64,000 bases of DNA, taken from Clostridia bacterium. Its GTDB lineage: Bacteria > Bacillota > Clostridia > DUPQ01. Below are positions 29,871 to 37,613 of this stretch, piece after piece. Within the stretch, counting starts at the first letter, position 1, and each line of letters begins with the position of its first letter. The notes under the pieces were generated by a model that saw only the letters and a list, made by a program, of their open reading frames with translations, was not told the DNA's origin and did no database searches. Made by a program: the position numbers and the translations under genes. The stretch is from positions 2,256 through 66,255 of the forward strand of contig JAFGQE010000158.1 of NCBI GenBank assembly GCA_016935835.1. Reading direction: 5' to 3'.

Positions 29871-31631
29871 CTACTTCTTTCTGTTTTTATATTTTGTGTG
29901 CAGCAGATGATGGGATTTCTCGCCCAAAGGCTTTATGAGAAATTCATCGTACAGTTTTTTTATTGCTGGATTTTCATGCGATTTGCGAATCGGAAGAGCT
30001 CCGTCCGCACGGTAGATGGCATCCATTCTTTTCAGCCTTAGCTCATCGGTTCCGCCGAACGGTTGTCCGCCGCCACCGATGCATCCGCCCGGGCAGCACA
30101 TTATTTCTATGAAAGCATATTCCGCCTTGCCGGATTTGATCAATTCCATGACCTTCCTTGCATTTGACAAGGAGTGGGCCACGGCGACTTTAACGATTGT
30201 TCCGTTCAGATCCACCGCTGCCTCCTTGATTCCCTCAAGGCCCCTGACCGCCTTGAAATCCAGAGATTCAAGCGTTTTTCCGGTCACTACTTCATAAACG
30301 GTCCTCAATGCGGCTTCCATAACGCCGCCGGTGGCTCCGAATATCACGGCTGCACCCGTTGAAAGTCCGAAGGGGGCATCGTAATCCTCCTCATCCAGCT
30401 GATTGAAGTCAACGCCGGCCTGGCGAAGCATTTTCCCAAGTTCCCTTGTTGTCAGAACCACATCGACATCCGGATTTTTCCCGTCGATTGACATTTCATC
30501 GCGTACGGCCTCAAACTTCTTGGCTGTGCAAGGCATTATTGAAACGCTGAATATATCTTCCGGTTTCTTTCCGATTTTTTCAGCGTAATAGCCCTTTGCC
30601 AGCGCCCCGAACATCTGCTGGGGCGACTTGCAGCTTGAAAGATGTGCAAGCAATTCGGGGTAGTATTGCTCTATGAAATTAATCCAGCCAGGGCTGCAGG
30701 AAGTGAGCATCGGAAGCACTCCTCCATGGTTGATACGCTCAAGCAGTTCATGCCCTTCCTCGATTATGGTAAGGTCCGCGGTAAAATCAGTGTCGAAGAC
30801 CTTGTCAAAGCCCAATGCCCGCAAAGATGCGACAAGTTTTCCCGTAACGATTGCACCGGGGTCGAGACCGAACTCCTCCCCGATGGAGACCCTTACCGCC
30901 GGAGCCGTCTGTACTACAACGGTTTTATCAGGATCATTGATCGCTTCCCAAACGCGCTCGATGTCCTCTTTCTCGGTTATGGCCGCAACGGGGCAGACAA
31001 CGGAACATTGCCCGCATGCGACACAGGCCACATCTCCCAGATACCAGCCGAATGCAGGCTTGACCTCGACATCGCCGCTTCTGCCGATATAGTCCAGGAT
31101 TGCAAGACCCTGTACCTTGGCGCACATCTGGATGCATCTTCCGCATTTTATGCATTTGTTCTGGTTTCTTTCTATTGACGGACTGCTGGTGTCTATTTCA
31201 CGGTGTACGAGTATGTTTTCAAAGCGGCTTTCCCTGACGCCCAGGTTTGCGGCTATCTCCTGAAGGCCGCAATGATTGTTCTTCTTGCAGGCGGTGCAGT
31301 TCATGTCGTGGTTTGCAAGAAGCAGTTCAACGACAACCTTCCTGGCCTGACGCACCTTCTGCGTATTGGTCCTGATAACCATGCCTTCCCTTACAGATGT
31401 TGCGCAGGCGGCCTGGAGGGTTTTGCAACCGTCGACCTCGACTACACATACCCTGCAGTTTGCCTTGATTTCCTGGTCGGGATGATAACAAAGGTTCGGT
31501 ATGGTTATACCTGTGTCCTTTGCTGCGTGAAGTATCGACGTCCCCTCGGGGACACTGACCGCCCGGTTGTTTATCTTTGCATTTACCATGTTCATATCAT
31601 ACCTCCTATACGGCAGCGGAATCCGTTGCAT
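29871..31631 (-). CDS. hydA: [FeFe] hydrogenase catalytic subunit (HydA, bifurcating-type, with N-terminal 2Fe-2S and F-cluster domains)
   Basis: H-cluster motifs L2 MPCTAKKFE and L3 EIMCCPGGCIGGGGQP. The L1 motif is TSCSPGW rather than the canonical TSCCPxW. Confidence 0.85.
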   Translation of the reverse strand: MQRIPLPYRRYDMNMVNAKINNRAVSVPEGTSILHAAKDTGITIPNLCYHPDQEIKANCRVCVVEVDGCKTLQAACATSVREGMVIRTNTQKVRQARKVVVELLLANHDMNCTACKKNNHCGLQEIAANLGVRESRFENILVHREIDTSSPSIERNQNKCIKCGRCIQMCAKVQGLAILDYIGRSGDVEVKPAFGWYLGDVACVACGQCSVVCPVAAITEKEDIERVWEAINDPDKTVVVQTAPAVRVSIGEEFGLDPGAIVTGKLVASLRALGFDKVFDTDFTADLTIIEEGHELLERINHGGVLPMLTSCSPGWINFIEQYYPELLAHLSSCKSPQQMFGALAKGYYAEKIGKKPEDIFSVSIMPCTAKKFEAVRDEMSIDGKNPDVDVVLTTRELGKMLRQAGVDFNQLDEEDYDAPFGLSTGAAVIFGATGGVMEAALRTVYEVVTGKTLESLDFKAVRGLEGIKEAAVDLNGTIVKVAVAHSLSNARKVMELIKSGKAEYAFIEIMCCPGGCIGGGGQPFGGTDELRLKRMDAIYRADGALPIRKSHENPAIKKLYDEFLIKPLGEKSHHLLHTKYKNRKK

Positions 31632-32883
31632 GGATTCTGCTTTGGAATTCCTCCGGGAAATACTGGAGGACTTTCTTTATGGCTGTTGGCGCTGCCTGTC
31701 CCAGGCCGCAGATGGATGCCTCGCTCATTGTTTCAATAAGTATCCCAAGCAAGGCCAGGTCCTTTTCGACGGCGACGCCTTCTATGAAACGGTCGAGAAG
31801 TATAAGCGTCTGAGCAAGCCCTTCACGGCAGGGAGTGCATTTGCCGCAGGATTCATGATGAAAGAACCCGATTATCCTTTTTAAAATATCAAGCACATTA
31901 ATTCTTTCATCCATAACAATTATTGCACCGGAACCGAAATTGAGGTCGTTCTCCCTCATTGAGGCATAATCAAGGGGGAGGTCCGACATATCAGATGGAA
32001 TCACCGGGCCGGATGCGCCGCCGAGCTGTATCATCTTGATTTCGCGATTGTTCGGGATGCCTCCGCCGAGGCCATATATTATGTCTTTTATGGAAGTTCC
32101 GAAAACAACTTCGTAAAGACCCGGCCTGACAACATTTCCGCTCAGGCATACAAGCTTTGTTCCCTTCGAGGAATCAGTGCCGATTTTTGAGAACTCCGCC
32201 CCGCCCATTTCAATGATGTGTGGAATATTGCAAAACGTCTCCACATTGTTGATCTGTGTCGGCTTGTTGTAAAGCCCGCATGTCGTCGGGAAAGGAGGCT
32301 TGTATGTGGCGCGGCCTGATTTGCCCTCGATAGTCACAAGAAGAGCAAACTCCTCGCCGCAGACATAGGAGCCGGCTCCCGTATACACATCAATGTCGAA
32401 ATCGAAGCCGGCGTCAAGGATATTATCCCCTAAAAAGCCGCGTATCCTCGCCTGTTCAAGCGCTTTTTCAACCATTGCCGCCGCACGCGCATATTCGCCC
32501 CTGATGAAGATATACCCATGCTTTATACCTGTCGCATAAGCGCATATTATGATGCCCTCGATCAATTGATGGGGATCGTTTTCCATCAGATACCTGTCCT
32601 TGAAATTCCCGGGTTCGCCCTCGTCGGCATTACAGATGATGTATTTGGGAGATCCCCCGGCCTCTTTTACCGCCTGCATTTTAAGTCCTGTTGGAAATGC
32701 CGCGCCCCCGCGGCCCTTCAGGCCGGAGTTTTTAATTTCATTGATTATATCGCCGCCGCTCATTGCGAGAGCTTTCCTCAGTGAATCATATCCCCCGCGG
32801 GAAATATAGTCGTCAATGGACCCGGGATTGATTTCACCAAATCTTTTTGTCAGCAATTTTCTGACACATGCATTTTTATTCAT
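31606..32883 (-). CDS. hydB: NuoF-like NADH-binding flavoprotein subunit of bifurcating hydrogenase (HydB)
   Basis: 425 aa. FMN/NADH-binding NuoF core with the N3 cluster motif [12 protein letters not shown]. No C-terminal ferredoxin domains. Confidence 0.8.
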   Translation of the reverse strand: MNKNACVRKLLTKRFGEINPGSIDDYISRGGYDSLRKALAMSGGDIINEIKNSGLKGRGGAAFPTGLKMQAVKEAGGSPKYIICNADEGEPGNFKDRYLMENDPHQLIEGIIICAYATGIKHGYIFIRGEYARAAAMVEKALEQARIRGFLGDNILDAGFDFDIDVYTGAGSYVCGEEFALLVTIEGKSGRATYKPPFPTTCGLYNKPTQINNVETFCNIPHIIEMGGAEFSKIGTDSSKGTKLVCLSGNVVRPGLYEVVFGTSIKDIIYGLGGGIPNNREIKMIQLGGASGPVIPSDMSDLPLDYASMRENDLNFGSGAIIVMDERINVLDILKRIIGFFHHESCGKCTPCREGLAQTLILLDRFIEGVAVEKDLALLGILIETMSEASICGLGQAAPTAIKKVLQYFPEEFQSRIHATDSAAV

Positions 32884-33340
32884 GGCTTTTCCTCCTGTGT
32901 TCGGCCAGAACCGAGGATATTTTTTCCGCCGTCAGGTTTCCATACAGATTGTCCCCGATTTGCATCGCCGGGGCCTTGTCGCAGCATCCCAGGCAACTCG
33001 AGTACTCAAGCGAGAACAAGCCGTCGTCCGTTGTCTGGCCCATCTTGGTTTTTAATCTTTGCTCAAGCTCAATGACCACATTCGTTGAATTGTTGACATA
33101 ACAGGGAACATCATGGCAAACCTGTATGATGTATTTCCCCCTGGGTTTTGTCGACAGAAGCGAGTAGAAGGATGCCACACTGTGAACCCTGCTTTCAGGA
33201 AGCCCGGTTTCTTTTGCGAATTCCCTTATGTCCTCCTGCGTCAGATAATTGCATGGCGTGGTTTTTTGATAAGCCAGCATAGCCCCGATAAGTTTGTCCG
33301 GCGTCCTGCCGAATTTTTCAAGCGCCTCCTTGACCTGCAT
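32876..33340 (-). CDS. hydC: NuoE-like 2Fe-2S thioredoxin-fold subunit (HydC)
   Basis: CHDVPCYV...CLGCCDKAP are the NuoE-type Cys ligands. Confidence 0.75.
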   Translation of the reverse strand: MQVKEALEKFGRTPDKLIGAMLAYQKTTPCNYLTQEDIREFAKETGLPESRVHSVASFYSLLSTKPRGKYIIQVCHDVPCYVNNSTNVVIELEQRLKTKMGQTTDDGLFSLEYSSCLGCCDKAPAMQIGDNLYGNLTAEKISSVLAEHRRKSHE

Positions 33341-33577: not shown

Positions 33578-33692
33578 ATTGTTACCGGAGAATCAAAACA
33601 AGTCATAAATTTAGTTTCCCGATTCCGGTCCTGATAGACAGGTTTGTTTACAAAAGTCAATGATTTCGGCATATTCAAAGAAGAAATTGAAT

Positions 33693-33721
33693 TTGACAAA
33701 TACGAAAACTTCTGTTAGAAT
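33693..33721 (+). promoter_or_regulatory. sigma-70-type promoter (TTGACA-17-TAGAAT) driving riboswitch/ABC operon
   Basis: Consensus -35 hexamer, 17 nt spacer, then TAGAAT -10. Confidence 0.5.
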
Positions 33722-33754
33722 TCCTGACAATATACACTATATGTATAAGGAGTG

Positions 33755-33890
33755 CGCCTTGGGTTCCGCGTCCTGGGACGGTCAGGACCGAGCGGCGCAG
33801 GCGTGAAAGCGCTACACTGCCTGATCGGGATAAAAACCCGGGTATGGAGTCCTTGGTATAAATCAGCCGGGACCCGATCCGGGTCTATTT
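33755..33890 (+). promoter_or_regulatory. ykkC-family (guanidine-I or subtype 2) riboswitch-like leader
   Basis: UUGGGUUCCGCG...GGACGGUCAGGACCGAGCGG...CGGGAUAAAAACCCGGG contains the conserved ykkC blocks as recalled from the consensus. A small hairpin GACCCG-auc-CGGGUC with a U-rich tail follows. Confidence 0.45.
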
Positions 33891-33919
33891 ATATATAAAA
33901 GAGCGGGGGAGGCAAAAAA

Positions 33920-34906
33920 ATGGCGGCAATAGTACTGGAAAACCTTTCGAAGACATACCGGGTGAAGGTTCGGGGCGAAGGCTTGAAAAATGCCATCAAG
34001 TCCTTGGTGAGGCCGGATTACAGGGAAGTCGAGGCTGTCAGGAACATCAGCTTTTCGGTGAATGAAGGAGAAATGCTTGCATTTATAGGACCCAACGGCG
34101 CGGGCAAATCGACAACAATTAAAATGCTGACGGGAATACTTCATCCCACCGGGGGTTCCATGAATGTGCTCGGATACAATCCGGTCAAGGACAGAAGGAG
34201 GCTTTCTTATAATATCGGGGCTGTTTTCGGCCAGAAATCGCAGCTTAGCTTCCACCTGCCTCCTGTTGATAGTTTCAGGCTGCTTTCAAGCGTATATGAA
34301 ATTGAAAAGAGCGCCTATGAATCGAGGCTTAAGCGGCTCGCGGACCTGCTGGAGTTGAATGAATTCCTCGACACTCCCGTCAGAAAACTGTCCCTGGGCC
34401 AAAGGGTCAGATGCGAGTTCGCCGCATCGCTGCTCCACGCACCGAAAATCCTGTTTCTCGATGAGCCTACCATAGGGCTGGATGTCGTTGTGAAACATAG
34501 GATCAGGGACCTGATAATAAAGCTTAACAAAGAAGAAAACACAACGGTATTCCTTACAAGCCATGACGCCGGGGATGTAGAGAACCTGTGCAGGAGGGCC
34601 ATCGTGATCGACCACGGCACGGTGGCGCTGGACATGCCGGTCAAGAAGCTGAAGTATGACTATCTTAATAAAAAAGTCGTTTCTTTAAAACTCAACGAAA
34701 GCGCAGGCATACCGGAACCCCCGGGGGTGGAATTGATTAAAAAAACGCCATATGCGGTGAAGTTTTCGGTTGACACGAGGATTGCGCCGATCAGCAAAAT
34801 CCTGGCTATGCTGGATGCCGGAAATATCGCCGACATAACCATTGAGGAACCACCCATGGAGGACATAATAGAGGCAATATATATGGGGAAGAGGGAAGGG
34901 GGCTGA
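33920..34906 (+). CDS. ABC transporter ATP-binding protein
   Basis: Walker A GPNGAGKST, signature LSLGQRVR, Walker B ILFLDEP. Confidence 0.85.
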   Translation: MAAIVLENLSKTYRVKVRGEGLKNAIKSLVRPDYREVEAVRNISFSVNEGEMLAFIGPNGAGKSTTIKMLTGILHPTGGSMNVLGYNPVKDRRRLSYNIGAVFGQKSQLSFHLPPVDSFRLLSSVYEIEKSAYESRLKRLADLLELNEFLDTPVRKLSLGQRVRCEFAASLLHAPKILFLDEPTIGLDVVVKHRIRDLIIKLNKEENTTVFLTSHDAGDVENLCRRAIVIDHGTVALDMPVKKLKYDYLNKKVVSLKLNESAGIPEPPGVELIKKTPYAVKFSVDTRIAPISKILAMLDAGNIADITIEEPPMEDIIEAIYMGKREGG

Positions 34907-34911
34907 GAGAT

Positions 34912-35694
34912 TTGGGCAAATATCTGTCGATAGCCGGCATAAGCATAAAGAACTCCCTGGTATACAGGGCCAGCGTGACCGGCCGGGTGGTCTTCTATTT
35001 CGTCTTCATATTCGTTTTCTTCAGCCTGTGGAGCATGATTTATTCGGGAAATGAAATAGCGGGATACAGCCTTGTTCAGATGATTTGGTATGTCTGCATG
35101 ACTGAGCTTGTTGTCTTTTGCAGCGGAAGCGAAATATTCGGAAGAATGAATCATGAGGTCAAGTCGGGTGAAATCGCCTATCGGCTTCTGAGGCCATGGA
35201 ATTATATTTTCATGCAGTTCGCCGACATGCTCGGCAGCATGGCCTTCAGCGCATCGGTTTTCACGGTGATGGCGGTTTTACTCGGCTTTGTTTTCGCGGG
35301 CCCCATACAGGGATTCAACCCGGCATCGGTTCCTTTGATAGTTATTTCCTTCGTGTTGTCAATAACGATGAATTTTTTCATATGCATGAGCCTTGGATTG
35401 CTTGCGTTTTATTTTGAGGAAAACTCGCCGTTCTATTTCATTTACCAGAAGCTGCTTTTCGTTTTCGGAATGCTTCTGCCCATAGAATTCCTTCCGATAT
35501 GGACGCAGGGGATCCTGAGATATCTGCCGTTTTCCCTTATAACCTGGGGACCGGCCAGGATGGTTGTGAATTTTTCGTATGAATATGCCTTTGAGATAAT
35601 TCCGATGCAGGCCGCATGGTGCGTGTTTTCGGTGCTGCTGGCGATGTTCGTGTTTTCAAGGGGGGTGAGGAAAGTCAATGTTCACGGAGGTTAA
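34912..35694 (+). CDS. ABC-2-type exporter permease
   Basis: 260 aa six-TM protein immediately after the ATPase. Confidence 0.6.
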   Translation: MGKYLSIAGISIKNSLVYRASVTGRVVFYFVFIFVFFSLWSMIYSGNEIAGYSLVQMIWYVCMTELVVFCSGSEIFGRMNHEVKSGEIAYRLLRPWNYIFMQFADMLGSMAFSASVFTVMAVLLGFVFAGPIQGFNPASVPLIVISFVLSITMNFFICMSLGLLAFYFEENSPFYFIYQKLLFVFGMLLPIEFLPIWTQGILRYLPFSLITWGPARMVVNFSYEYAFEIIPMQAAWCVFSVLLAMFVFSRGVRKVNVHGG

Positions 35695-36475
35695 AACACA
35701 TCTTAAGCTGATATTGAAGTATTTTACGTTCAATCTGTCTGCGCTAACCGAGTACAGGACAAGTTTCCTGGTGCAGGTGTTCGGAATGGCGCTGAACAAC
35801 GCGAGTTTTGCATTTTTTTGGTGGGTGCTGTTTGACAGGCTTGGCACGGGCATAGGCGGATACGGGTTCACTGATGTAATGTTCCTGTGGGCGGTTGCCT
35901 CGACGGGCTTTGGTTTGTCGCATGTCTTTTTTGCCAATGCAAACAGGATATCAGGCATGATCATAACGGGAGAGCTTGACACATACCTCCTGCAGCCGAA
36001 GAACCCGCTTATCAACTCGATATCCGCAAGGATGTCGGTGACGGCATGGGGGGACGTCATATACGGCATAGTGCTGATGGCGCTTATCAAGGCAAGCGGA
36101 ATGATGTGGGTCATGTTCGGAATAAGCATATTCACGGCGGCTCTGTTGATTACCTCGATTGCCGTGGCAGGCCATTCCCTGACATTCTATTTTGGGAACA
36201 TGGAGGCTGTCGGAAGGACTTTATGGGAATTTACAATAACTTTCTCCATCTACCCCGAGACAATATTCAAAGGTCCAGTCAAAGCACTGATAATGACGGC
36301 TGTTCCCATAGGCTTTATAACCCATGTCCCGCTCCGTCTTGTGCGAAACTTTTCCTGGGGGACGCTGTTGCTGCTTTTCGGTGTAACCCTGGCATATGCG
36401 CTTTTTGCATTCATTCTTTATATGAAGGGCCTGAGAAAATATGAATCCGGCAACCTGATTGTTACCCGGATGTGA
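35678..36475 (+). CDS. ABC-2-type exporter permease (second)
   Basis: 265 aa six-TM protein; overlaps the previous gene. Confidence 0.6.
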   Translation: MFTEVKTHLKLILKYFTFNLSALTEYRTSFLVQVFGMALNNASFAFFWWVLFDRLGTGIGGYGFTDVMFLWAVASTGFGLSHVFFANANRISGMIITGELDTYLLQPKNPLINSISARMSVTAWGDVIYGIVLMALIKASGMMWVMFGISIFTAALLITSIAVAGHSLTFYFGNMEAVGRTLWEFTITFSIYPETIFKGPVKALIMTAVPIGFITHVPLRLVRNFSWGTLLLLFGVTLAYALFAFILYMKGLRKYESGNLIVTRM

Positions 36476-36542: not shown

Positions 36543-37613
36543 TCATTTGATCCCGGGTGGAAGCATAACCGCAAAGCGGCAGACCGGGTCGCCCCGAAGC
36601 GCTGATTGAAGCAACTCAACCCCAAGCTCCGTGCCAAGAATCACCTCGAATGGGAATTTTTCAAATCCGGCGCTGCAATAACACCAGTCGGAATCTATGT
36701 TTTCGCGGCTTTCGTCAAGAATGCGCTCCCTTGCGAAAGGGCAGTGGCAGGCATAGTAAGATTTTAAAACAGGATCCGTGGATTTTAGAAAATTGATGCC
36801 GTCGTAGGGTATTTTTGTCATATAAAGTTTTCCGCCGTCCCTTACGGCTGAAAGAATCTCCTGATTTGAACTGACGTAATCAACCACTTCCTGCGTTATC
36901 TCCTGTTCATACCATATCTTTCCGATGTTGCAATATTCCTGCAATTCAGCGACATTGCGCGCATGTCGTCCCGCAAGGTATTCATCGAGCGAAGAAGATT
37001 CCTCGTACAGCCGCTTTTCCTCCTGCATCGCGGATTCGGGCAGGCCGTGGTTGTTGCCGGCGAGAATCTTTTTATAAAGTGAAGGTTCAATACTTGCCTT
37101 GAGACGGTCCATGAATCTTGCTGTGAATGCCGGCATGTCGCCCGGAGCCGTCCCAAGGGGAATTTCCAAAAGCCCCGAAAAAACTTTCTCCACCGCTTCT
37201 TCTCCGGCATAGGCCAGCATCCGGTTTTTTATACTTTCGATGACGCCGATTCCGCCCAAAATACGGGTGAAGTATATGTATGCACCGTGATTGTTTGCCA
37301 CATGACAATACCTTGCCAATGCCAGGAGCAAGGGCAGGTTTATTTTGCCGGATTCAAAAAGCGCAGCGATATATTTCTCTATTTGACCAGGGGAGGCGGT
37401 TTCGACCGAAACACCGTATATTTTCAAATATGAATCCATTTCCCTGGCATCGGCGACTGCAAGGTCTGCCGCGGAATCATCATAACCTCTGCTTTTATAA
37501 AGATCCCTCAGTTGTTTCTCAAGCATGTTCTTCTCCCGTCCATCATCCGGCCGGTTCTGTCCTGTCCACGGTTCCGTCGGACTTGTAGTAGGTCCTGATG
37601 CCGGAACCGGCAT
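36543..37613 (-). CDS. hypothetical protein with Cys-rich C-terminus
   Basis: C-terminal CHCPFARE...CYCSAGFE...C; no recognisable family. Start uncertain. Confidence 0.3.
   Translation of the reverse strand: MPVPASGPTTSPTEPWTGQNRPDDGREKNMLEKQLRDLYKSRGYDDSAADLAVADAREMDSYLKIYGVSVETASPGQIEKYIAALFESGKINLPLLLALARYCHVANNHGAYIYFTRILGGIGVIESIKNRMLAYAGEEAVEKVFSGLLEIPLGTAPGDMPAFTARFMDRLKASIEPSLYKKILAGNNHGLPESAMQEEKRLYEESSSLDEYLAGRHARNVAELQEYCNIGKIWYEQEITQEVVDYVSSNQEILSAVRDGGKLYMTKIPYDGINFLKSTDPVLKSYYACHCPFARERILDESRENIDSDWCYCSAGFEKFPFEVILGTELGVELLQSALRGDPVCRFAVMLPPGIK

Follow-up and report, generated by a model that had tools for sequence, protein, structure and literature searches.

The division of the ykkC RNAs into guanidine-I riboswitches and subtypes 2a to 2d reportedly goes back to Nelson in 2017, as relayed by Sherlock in 2018 and by Knappenberger in 2018. 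In the scheme laid out in Sherlock 2018, guanidine-I makes up subtype 1 and stands beside subtypes 2a–2d (PMC6003355), subtype 2 being recognized by a pyrimidine at the position of the guanidine-I A46 (C49 in PRPP numbering) (PMC6031431). Subtypes 2a and 2b, the latter sensing PRPP, further possess an additional helix, P0, built from conserved tails at the 5′ and 3′ ends, and a single G (G96) separates the PRPP aptamers from the ppGpp aptamers, in which this S-turn G, common to PRPP and guanidine-I aptamers, is replaced by a non-G or is absent (PMC6031431). At the inner end of P0, A-5 and G-6 contact the 5′ phosphates of the ligand and stack on its base, and the first C of a conserved ACAC (C75) base-pairs with the ligand guanine (PMC6031431; PMC9881157). 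An ON logic by antitermination is published for the ppGpp, PRPP, and guanidine-I switches alike (PMC6031431).

Subtype 2a binds ppGpp, and 12 of its 105 examples lie upstream of operons of three ABC genes (natA, COG3694, and COG4587); these natA-type ppGpp riboswitches and the branched-chain amino acid (BCAA) type occur in different organisms, and the cargo of the natA-type ABC-2 exporter was not known when the class was described in 2018 (PMC6003355). According to Jagodnik 2023, where the pocket features are listed, the aptamers C94 (Clostridium sp. BL8) and C101 (Clostridiales bacterium oral taxon 876 F0540) prefer pppGpp, C99 and C100 bind both ppGpp and pppGpp, and C105 binds neither (PMC9881157). 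C94 binds ppGpp with a Kd of ~400 nM (PMC6003355; PMC9881157), and the pppGpp-specific Clostridiales natA aptamer C101 was the basis of a reporter for living B. subtilis cells in a 2025 paper (PMC12373219). The literature thus already covers the class, its mechanism, and its association with natA, and the leader analyzed here is a further member. With a probability of roughly 0.78, we read it as a transcriptional ON riboswitch of ykkC subtype 2a that senses (p)ppGpp, an alarmone of bacterial starvation, and controls a natA-type three-gene ABC-2 exporter.

Results

The window, by which we mean the whole stretch of 64,000 nucleotides that was analyzed, carries an ABC ATPase gene (33920–34906, +; 328 aa; Pfam PF00005) followed by two ABC-2 permease genes (34912–35694, +, 260 aa, and 35678–36475, +, 265 aa; both PF06182), which are predicted to form a three-gene exporter operon under leader control (33920–36475, +). 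This gene set is the one already recognized in the first-pass annotation, made from the letters of the sequence, as is the promoter, which we locate at 33693–33721 (+) as a predicted sigma-70-type element (TTGACA-17-TAGAAT with a TG extension) matching at 11 of 12 positions; the tail of the −10 region (GAAUUCCU) is found at equal distance in the metagenome relatives L071, L074, and L077. The ribosome-binding site GGGGGAGG and the ATG start of the ATPase gene (33905–33922, +) lie outside the switching hairpins described below. The operon type fits the published association of subtype 2a with BCAA, glutamate synthase, or natA-type ABC operons, judged here by Pfam. The best NCBIfam match of the ATPase is the DrrA subfamily, under the cut-off, neither permease has an NCBIfam match, and our follow-up literature search found no paper naming the cargo of a natA-type exporter. 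The genes on either side are on the opposite strand and outside the regulated operon: upstream, a NuoF-like flavoprotein (PF01512, PF10589) and a NuoE-like 2Fe-2S ferredoxin (PF01257) at 31606–33340 (−), and downstream, a 356-aa protein with a DUF6144 C-terminus at 36543–37613 (−).

The leader had been likened to the ykkC family on account of four sequence blocks, every one of which we found in place (GGGUUCCG at 33761–33768, GGACGGUC at 33776–33783, GACCGAG at 33786–33792, and CGGGAUAAAAACCCGGG at 33826–33842). The likeness goes beyond chance, since a permissive scan of 33650–33960 (311 nt) aligned the Rfam family RF00442 (Guanidine-I) end to end (model 1–107) to 33747–33846, with 46.3 bits and an E-value of 2.1e-7. 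The RF00442 search proposed in the first-pass annotation thereby yields a significant, full-length match, but one whose score lies under the gathering score of 63 bits, which fits a non-guanidine ykkC variant. Over the entire assembly (2.34 Mb in 180 contigs, 90.6% complete), the match has an E-value of 3.7e-7 and is the sole RF00442-like match, and the presence of a single such riboswitch in this genome agrees with the published separation of natA-type and BCAA-type ppGpp riboswitches. The two other Rfam matches in 33650–33960 are at chance level (E 4.4 and 6.2), no purine-riboswitch family reaches its gathering score anywhere in the window, and no separate ppGpp or PRPP family matches the leader at E up to 10, so that Rfam offers no way of assigning the subtype. 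At gathering thresholds, the scan over the window leaves the leader blank and returns only a 6S RNA (RF00013; 62132–62344, +; 75.4 bits, E 4.7e-13), which exceeds the model by an insertion of 41 nt.

The search for ATPase relatives returned 68 loci, of which 22 are full or near-full orthologues of 56–96% identity (L002–L022 and L057). Leaving out L007, which has no upstream DNA, the same leader precedes 19 of the 21 orthologous operons with readable upstream DNA, that of L057 included. A full-length RF00442 match, each time under gathering (38.6–53.5 bits), is found at 18 of the 20 Rfam-scanned loci, 57–193 nt upstream of the ATPase start. In four Clostridium loci (L014, L016, L019, and L021), aptamer and terminator lie 124–193 nt upstream of that start, behind a long AT-rich spacer, this distance being 57–100 nt elsewhere. 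The leaders fall into a Clostridium clade (L010–L022 and L057) and a window clade, which comprises the window and L002–L006, all from uncultured Clostridia. Scanning metagenomes with a pattern that was free at six positions of P3 added eight loci, all of the window clade, which with its P3 variant counts 14 sequences, 11 of them distinct. The orthologous loci include the validated aptamers C94 and C101: L017 has the accession and coordinates published for C101, and L014, L016, and L019, compared by eye, agree in sequence with the C94 construct as published. A member of the window clade also figures in the published list of 105 subtype 2a candidates, namely C95, an environmental sequence whose contig is also that of L075; its Table S1 entry holds no gene, species, or feature data, and the main text of PMC9881157 does not mention it.

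The orthologous operons L008 and L009 are without a normal aptamer in the Rfam and R1 scans, R1 being our covariance model of the window clade. Upstream of the L009 ATPase, the RNA at L009:239–347 (+) still has the GAGUG and GAGUC tails, ACAC, a hairpin resembling P3, and an overlapping terminator with its U-run, and is without GGGUUCCG and the CCGAGCG core; it scores 27.3 bits with R1, Rfam is blank for it at E up to 1, and the 900 nt upstream of the ATPase hold no ORFs of at least 40 aa. This RNA may be a decayed or remodelled relative of ykkC.

R1, which gives the window aptamer 118.6 bits, had matches in 11 of the 150 genomes of the class that were scored, the window's own genome counted. 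Once labelled by their downstream genes, the matches rank from natA leaders (50–68 bits) through ilvB/ilvN (40–48 bits) and purC/purL (30–37 bits) to SMR-associated guanidine-I examples (27–28 bits). In this ranking, L080–L082, followed by ABC ATPases, score 56–68 bits; L083–L085, of ppGpp type and followed by acetolactate synthase subunits (ilvB/ilvN), 40–48 bits; L086, L089, and L087, of PRPP type and next to purC, purL, and, for one copy, IS200 flanks, 30–37 bits; and the guanidine-I leaders of SMR exporters, L088 and L090, 27–28 bits. The validated C94 and C101 loci reach 59–61 bits. Within the window's family, the element is found in the sole other genome of the same genus, and R1 has no match in three genomes of other genera, each 96% complete. 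Two of the ATPase-associated loci, from another family of the class, display a third natA-type form of P3 (L080:1501–1603 and L082:1501–1604), ACAC-UA(C/U)(C/A)-GGGG...CCCC-(A/U)UGAAG-GAG, with an internal loop incapable of Watson–Crick pairs; the ATPase frame of L080 is split into 40 aa and 234 aa. At L087:1501–1603 (−), the gene after a PRPP-type aptamer (CCC-AGG-AGG-AUAGG) is that of an IS200-like transposase and not a purine gene.

The aptamer itself, of ykkC subtype 2a type and natA subgroup, spans 33746–33855 (+), and the limits first drawn (33755–33890) miss the 5′ strand of P0. All helices are on the forward strand: P0 (33746–33751 with 33850–33855), P1 (33753–33758 with 33794–33799), P1b (33769–33772 with 33777–33780), P2 (33800–33803 with 33810–33813), and P3 (33818–33821 and 33826–33829 with 33837–33844), within a ykkC scaffold of P1, P1a, P1b, P2, and P3 that has the conserved GGGUUCCG and GGNCCGAG cores. 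The P0 tails read UAAGGA-G (33746–33752) and UCCUUG (33850–33855), with an A in the last pair and an unpaired G beside it; this A-G dinucleotide at the inner end of P0 (33751–33752, +), equivalent to A-5/G-6, is invariant in 19/19 leaders and in all 11 window-clade rows. The G-C of CCGAGCG lies at 33792–33793 (+), where C33793 is the subtype-2 discriminator (A in guanidine-I), and CCGAGCG occurs in 28/28 natA-type leaders collected. The ACAC junction (33814–33817, +), whose C33815 corresponds to the C known to pair with the ppGpp guanine, is found in every leader parsed. Between P3 and P0, the single-stranded linker UGGAG (33845–33849, +) fits, with its 5 nt, the published length of 4–5 nt and departs in sequence from the published (A)NARG/NAGG consensus. 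One grammar parses 19/19 leaders, in the order P0, G, P1, UUGGGUUCCG, P1b, GG-N-CCGAGCG, P1′, P2, ACAC, P3, GAG, and P0′. A small AU-rich hairpin (AUAUACA...UGUAUAA; 33731–33747, +), situated between the predicted transcription start and the aptamer, overlaps the first bases of P0 and is part of the minimum free energy (MFE) fold of the leader.

On this basis, the leader displays the features of subtype 2a, namely a C in place of A46, a P0 that covaries, the A-G next to P0, ACAC, and a linker of 5 nt, and, as read from its sequence, it retains all of the pocket residues known from ppGpp complexes. The lean toward subtype 2 that had been drawn from the ABC-2 association is thus borne out by the replacement of the guanidine-discriminating A with C33793. 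The same residue weighs against the idea, also entertained in the first-pass annotation, of a guanidine-I riboswitch (ykkC subtype 1) turning on a guanidine exporter. The window leader does share with guanidine-I the P1-P1a-P1b-P2-P3 scaffold and most of the conserved core bases, RF00442 is the sole Rfam family matched, and the 3′ side of P3 reads CCCGGG, like the guanidine-I consensus CCcGGGAG. Against this, its 46.3 bits fall short of 63, as do the scores of 18 orthologous leaders (38.6–53.5 bits), C33793 takes the place of the sorting A (A46, CCGAGAG), the conserved P0 tails are foreign to guanidine-I, and no guanidine-related genes lie downstream; the natural guanidine-I controls L088 and L090 have the A at the discriminator position, precede SMR exporters, and obtain the lowest R1 scores. 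Both the discriminator base and the score led us to reject guanidine export, and we regard a guanidine-I identity as extremely improbable.

Covariation supports every helix. An alignment of both clades by MAFFT (A1) misaligned P2 and P3, was left out of the pair counts, and was replaced by an anchored parse and by two further alignments. In the first of these, restricted to the window clade (A2; 11 distinct sequences), the proposed structure has 96.1% standard pairs, against 25–44% when the partners are slid, with five pairs that change on both sides, 84–100% pairing in each helix, and a covariation score reached by 0/500 shuffles. The second (A3; cross-clade, 25 distinct rows including one weak L009 match) is 95.3% paired, with 86–100% in each helix, double-sided changes at 19 of its 33 pairs, to which P0 contributes three, P1 four, and P3 five, and no equal score in 500 shuffles; being fitted to the model structure, it leans toward that same structure, the independent checks being the A2 count and the hand parse. 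All 18 distinct sequences form the four core pairs of P0, two of which change on both sides. The P1–P3 architecture named in the first-pass annotation both folds and covaries.

Compared with the validated C94 and C101, to which it is only 50–52% identical, the window aptamer precedes an orthologous operon (there, an ATPase 57–58% identical to that of the window, then two PF06182 permeases). It has the same order of helices, invariant GAGUG and GAGUC tails, ACAC, CCGAGCG, a 5-nt linker ending in GAG, and an overlapping terminator, and the "GCA" 0/1 arrangement of its P1 is that of C94. In the linker, UGGAG or CGGAG in the window clade stands against ACGAG in C94 and C101, of equal length and with the last three bases in common (Table S1, PMC9881157). 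The P1 stem-loop is 47 nt long in the window against 43 in C94 and C101, and the U-tract of the window is weaker. The ilvE/ilvB-type ppGpp riboswitches (T. oceani, D. hafniense; L083–L085) share the fold, P0, the pocket residues, and the ON-switch terminator logic, and the D. hafniense construct has, like the window, 10 nt between the top of P3 and P0; they differ in reading ACAC-CGU-GGG...CCC-(N)(A or none)-G-CGG, in their linker (NAAG/NAGG), in preceding branched-chain amino acid genes, and in their R1 scores (40–48 bits).

Apart from the variant form of its P3 helix, the leader is an ordinary member of the class. In its clade-specific form, P3 (33818–33844, +) has a lower stem UGCC/GGUA, a 5′ bulge UGAU (33822–33825), an upper stem CGGG/CCCG, and a loop AUAAAAA. 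Throughout the window clade, the 5′ strand bears an A/U-rich bulge of 2–4 nt and the 3′ strand an invariant GGG, and the CC at 33820–33821 and the GGG at 33840–33842 are invariant in 11/11 distinct members. The window P3 is thus GC-rich, with a bulged 5′ strand and the 3′ strand CCCGGGUA, whereas that of C94 and C101 is a continuous UUUUAGG/CCUAAAG(G); the Paenibacillus natA aptamers, which bind both ligands, have by eye a 5′-strand bulge and a continuous 3′ strand. The 3′ side of P3 reads CCC-G-G-G-U-(A/U) in the window clade, CCC-A-G-G-CGG in PRPP aptamers, CCC-(N)-(A or none)-G-CGG in ilv-type ppGpp aptamers, and CCU-A-A-A-GG in Clostridium natA aptamers. Position 96, mapped to PRPP numbering from the construct sequences of the supplement and from natural examples of the class, corresponds to G33841 in the window and is a G in all 11 distinct members of the clade, against an A in C94 and C101.

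In the pairing register that we propose for the lower P3, U33818 faces A33844, G33819 faces U33843, C33820 faces G33842, and C33821 faces G33841, after which come the bulge, C33826-G33840, and GGG/CCC. This register is paired in 18/18 distinct sequences, its two outer pairs covary in A2 (U-A/G-U and G-U/A-U), and it is the MFE fold of the isolated P3 in eight of ten clade members. The folding model accordingly indicates that G33841 can pair with the inserted C33821 in the lower stem, a pair that covariation cannot confirm because both bases are invariant. For two members, the window and L004, folding P3 in isolation yields an alternative at −8.4 versus −7.4 kcal/mol, in which the CC pairs with the GG of the linker instead.

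The G at position 96 raises the possibility of a specificity shifted to PRPP or to another guanine-free phosphorylated metabolite, with G96 flipping out and pairing with C33815, in the place that the ppGpp guanine would take, as in subtype 2b. G33841 occupies the very site where a single G-to-A change swaps PRPP/ppGpp specificity ~40,000-fold (PMC6031431), the GGG past the top of P3 is invariant in all 11 distinct members at positions that the scan had left free, and the alternative fold of the window and L004 leaves G33842 unpaired and G33841 paired only with U33825. PRPP riboswitches also share with the window the scaffold with P0, the C at the A46 position, ACAC, and the G at 96. Nonetheless, the natural PRPP aptamers (L086, L089, and L087) have a GA/AGG internal loop in which no Watson–Crick pairs are possible, and are unable to form pairs equivalent to the lower P3 of the window clade: on the strand opposing G96, they read CGGA, CGAA, or CAGA...AGG, when the window has CC plus the bulge and not GA. 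The non-Watson–Crick GA/AGG S-turn loop of the PRPP type is indeed absent from the window P3, where the GG of the clade faces an invariant, complementary CC and eight of ten members fold in this way. The linker, furthermore, is without the AUAGG/GUAGG of PRPP aptamers, the operon is of natA type with transporter genes instead of purine genes, and R1 scores PRPP-type aptamers at 30–37 bits versus 40–68 for the ppGpp type. Altogether, we hold a shift of this kind to be quite unlikely.

A broader version of the same idea would make of the window clade a distinct specificity variant of the ykkC scaffold, in which the P3 bulge and the GGG tune the pocket away from plain ppGpp; the ligand would then be sought in a strict selectivity for pppGpp or pGpp, or in a guanine-free pyrophosphate such as PRPP. 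We take this to be unlikely. The first-pass annotation had left the ligand open: this can now be sharpened to the natA subgroup of subtype 2a, although its caution was partly justified by the presence of G33841 at the PRPP/ppGpp position.

With regard to the switching mechanism, a terminator hairpin of −27.0 kcal/mol spans 33836–33884 (+), and its 5′ arm is made of the 3′ strand of P3, the linker, and the 3′ strand of P0, so that aptamer and terminator are mutually exclusive. Without the strand shared with the aptamer, the rest of the hairpin folds at only −7.1 kcal/mol, and the same overlapping layout is found in 17/17 leaders analyzed. The hairpin is followed by an A-interrupted, U-rich tract (CUAUUUAUAUAUAAA/CUAUUUAUAUAU; 33885–33899, +) with 5 U in its first nine positions, weaker than the UUUAUUUUUUU of the Clostridium clade; the hairpin ends at 33884 and the tract reaches ~33899, against the end of 33890 first proposed for the element. 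The MFE of the whole leader corresponds to the terminator form, at −60.4 kcal/mol versus −44.0 with the aptamer enforced, which suggests that the default state is OFF and that the ligand-stabilized aptamer acts as antiterminator. Since the 3′ strand of the aptamer doubles as the 5′ arm of the terminator, we infer an ON switch operating at transcription termination.

According to this model, transcription would start at the strong predicted promoter and, in the absence of ligand, 33836–33856 would pair with 33864–33884, the resulting hairpin and the U-rich tract stopping transcription ahead of the ATPase gene. Rising (p)ppGpp would bind in the pocket that P0, the ACAC junction, the P1 G-C bulge, and the linker between P3 and P0 make up; the shared strand would then be locked in P3 and P0, the terminator blocked, and the exporter transcribed. 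Given the −7.1 kcal/mol predicted for the residual hairpin once the aptamer is folded, some termination may persist. The proposed ligand can be made in this organism, whose genome has a 735-aa frame for a RelA/SpoT homologue (157.7 bits). Control at the level of translation was considered and dropped, the ribosome-binding site (33905–33912) being outside the alternative hairpins.

Discussion

We infer (p)ppGpp as the probable ligand from the retained pocket, the operon type, and the validated relatives of the leader. This leaves to be weighed the prospect of a ykkC-derived leader for a ligand new to the family (pGpp or another nucleotide), or else of a decayed aptamer reduced to a constitutive attenuator. 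As a matter of fact, the ykkC scaffold has repeatedly switched ligand by few substitutions, subtype 2d was called an orphan in a 2020 review (PMC7266159), the natA aptamer C105 bound neither ppGpp nor pppGpp, and the P3 bulge and linker of the window are unlike those of all tested aptamers. The pocket residues of the ppGpp complexes are, however, all kept, and the closest tested relatives do bind (p)ppGpp. As for decay, the clade-wide purifying selection, together with compensatory changes, argues against it. The chances of either a new ligand or a decayed aptamer consequently appear slim to us.

Read as a (p)ppGpp riboswitch of subtype 2a, the leader of the window is a well-supported example of the least understood branch of (p)ppGpp riboswitches, that in which the alarmone would turn on an ABC-2 exporter, and the operon at 33920–36475 is marked as a likely target of the stringent response in this genome. 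Such elements are missed by default Rfam annotation, as all 19 leaders scored with RF00442 lie under the gathering score. From the perspective of ligand specificity, the window clade amounts to a natural test of the single-nucleotide ppGpp/PRPP rule, because the discriminating G is present but apparently base-paired. Should the clade after all be a specificity variant, its ABC-2 exporter would be coupled to a signal other than that of the Clostridium natA aptamers.
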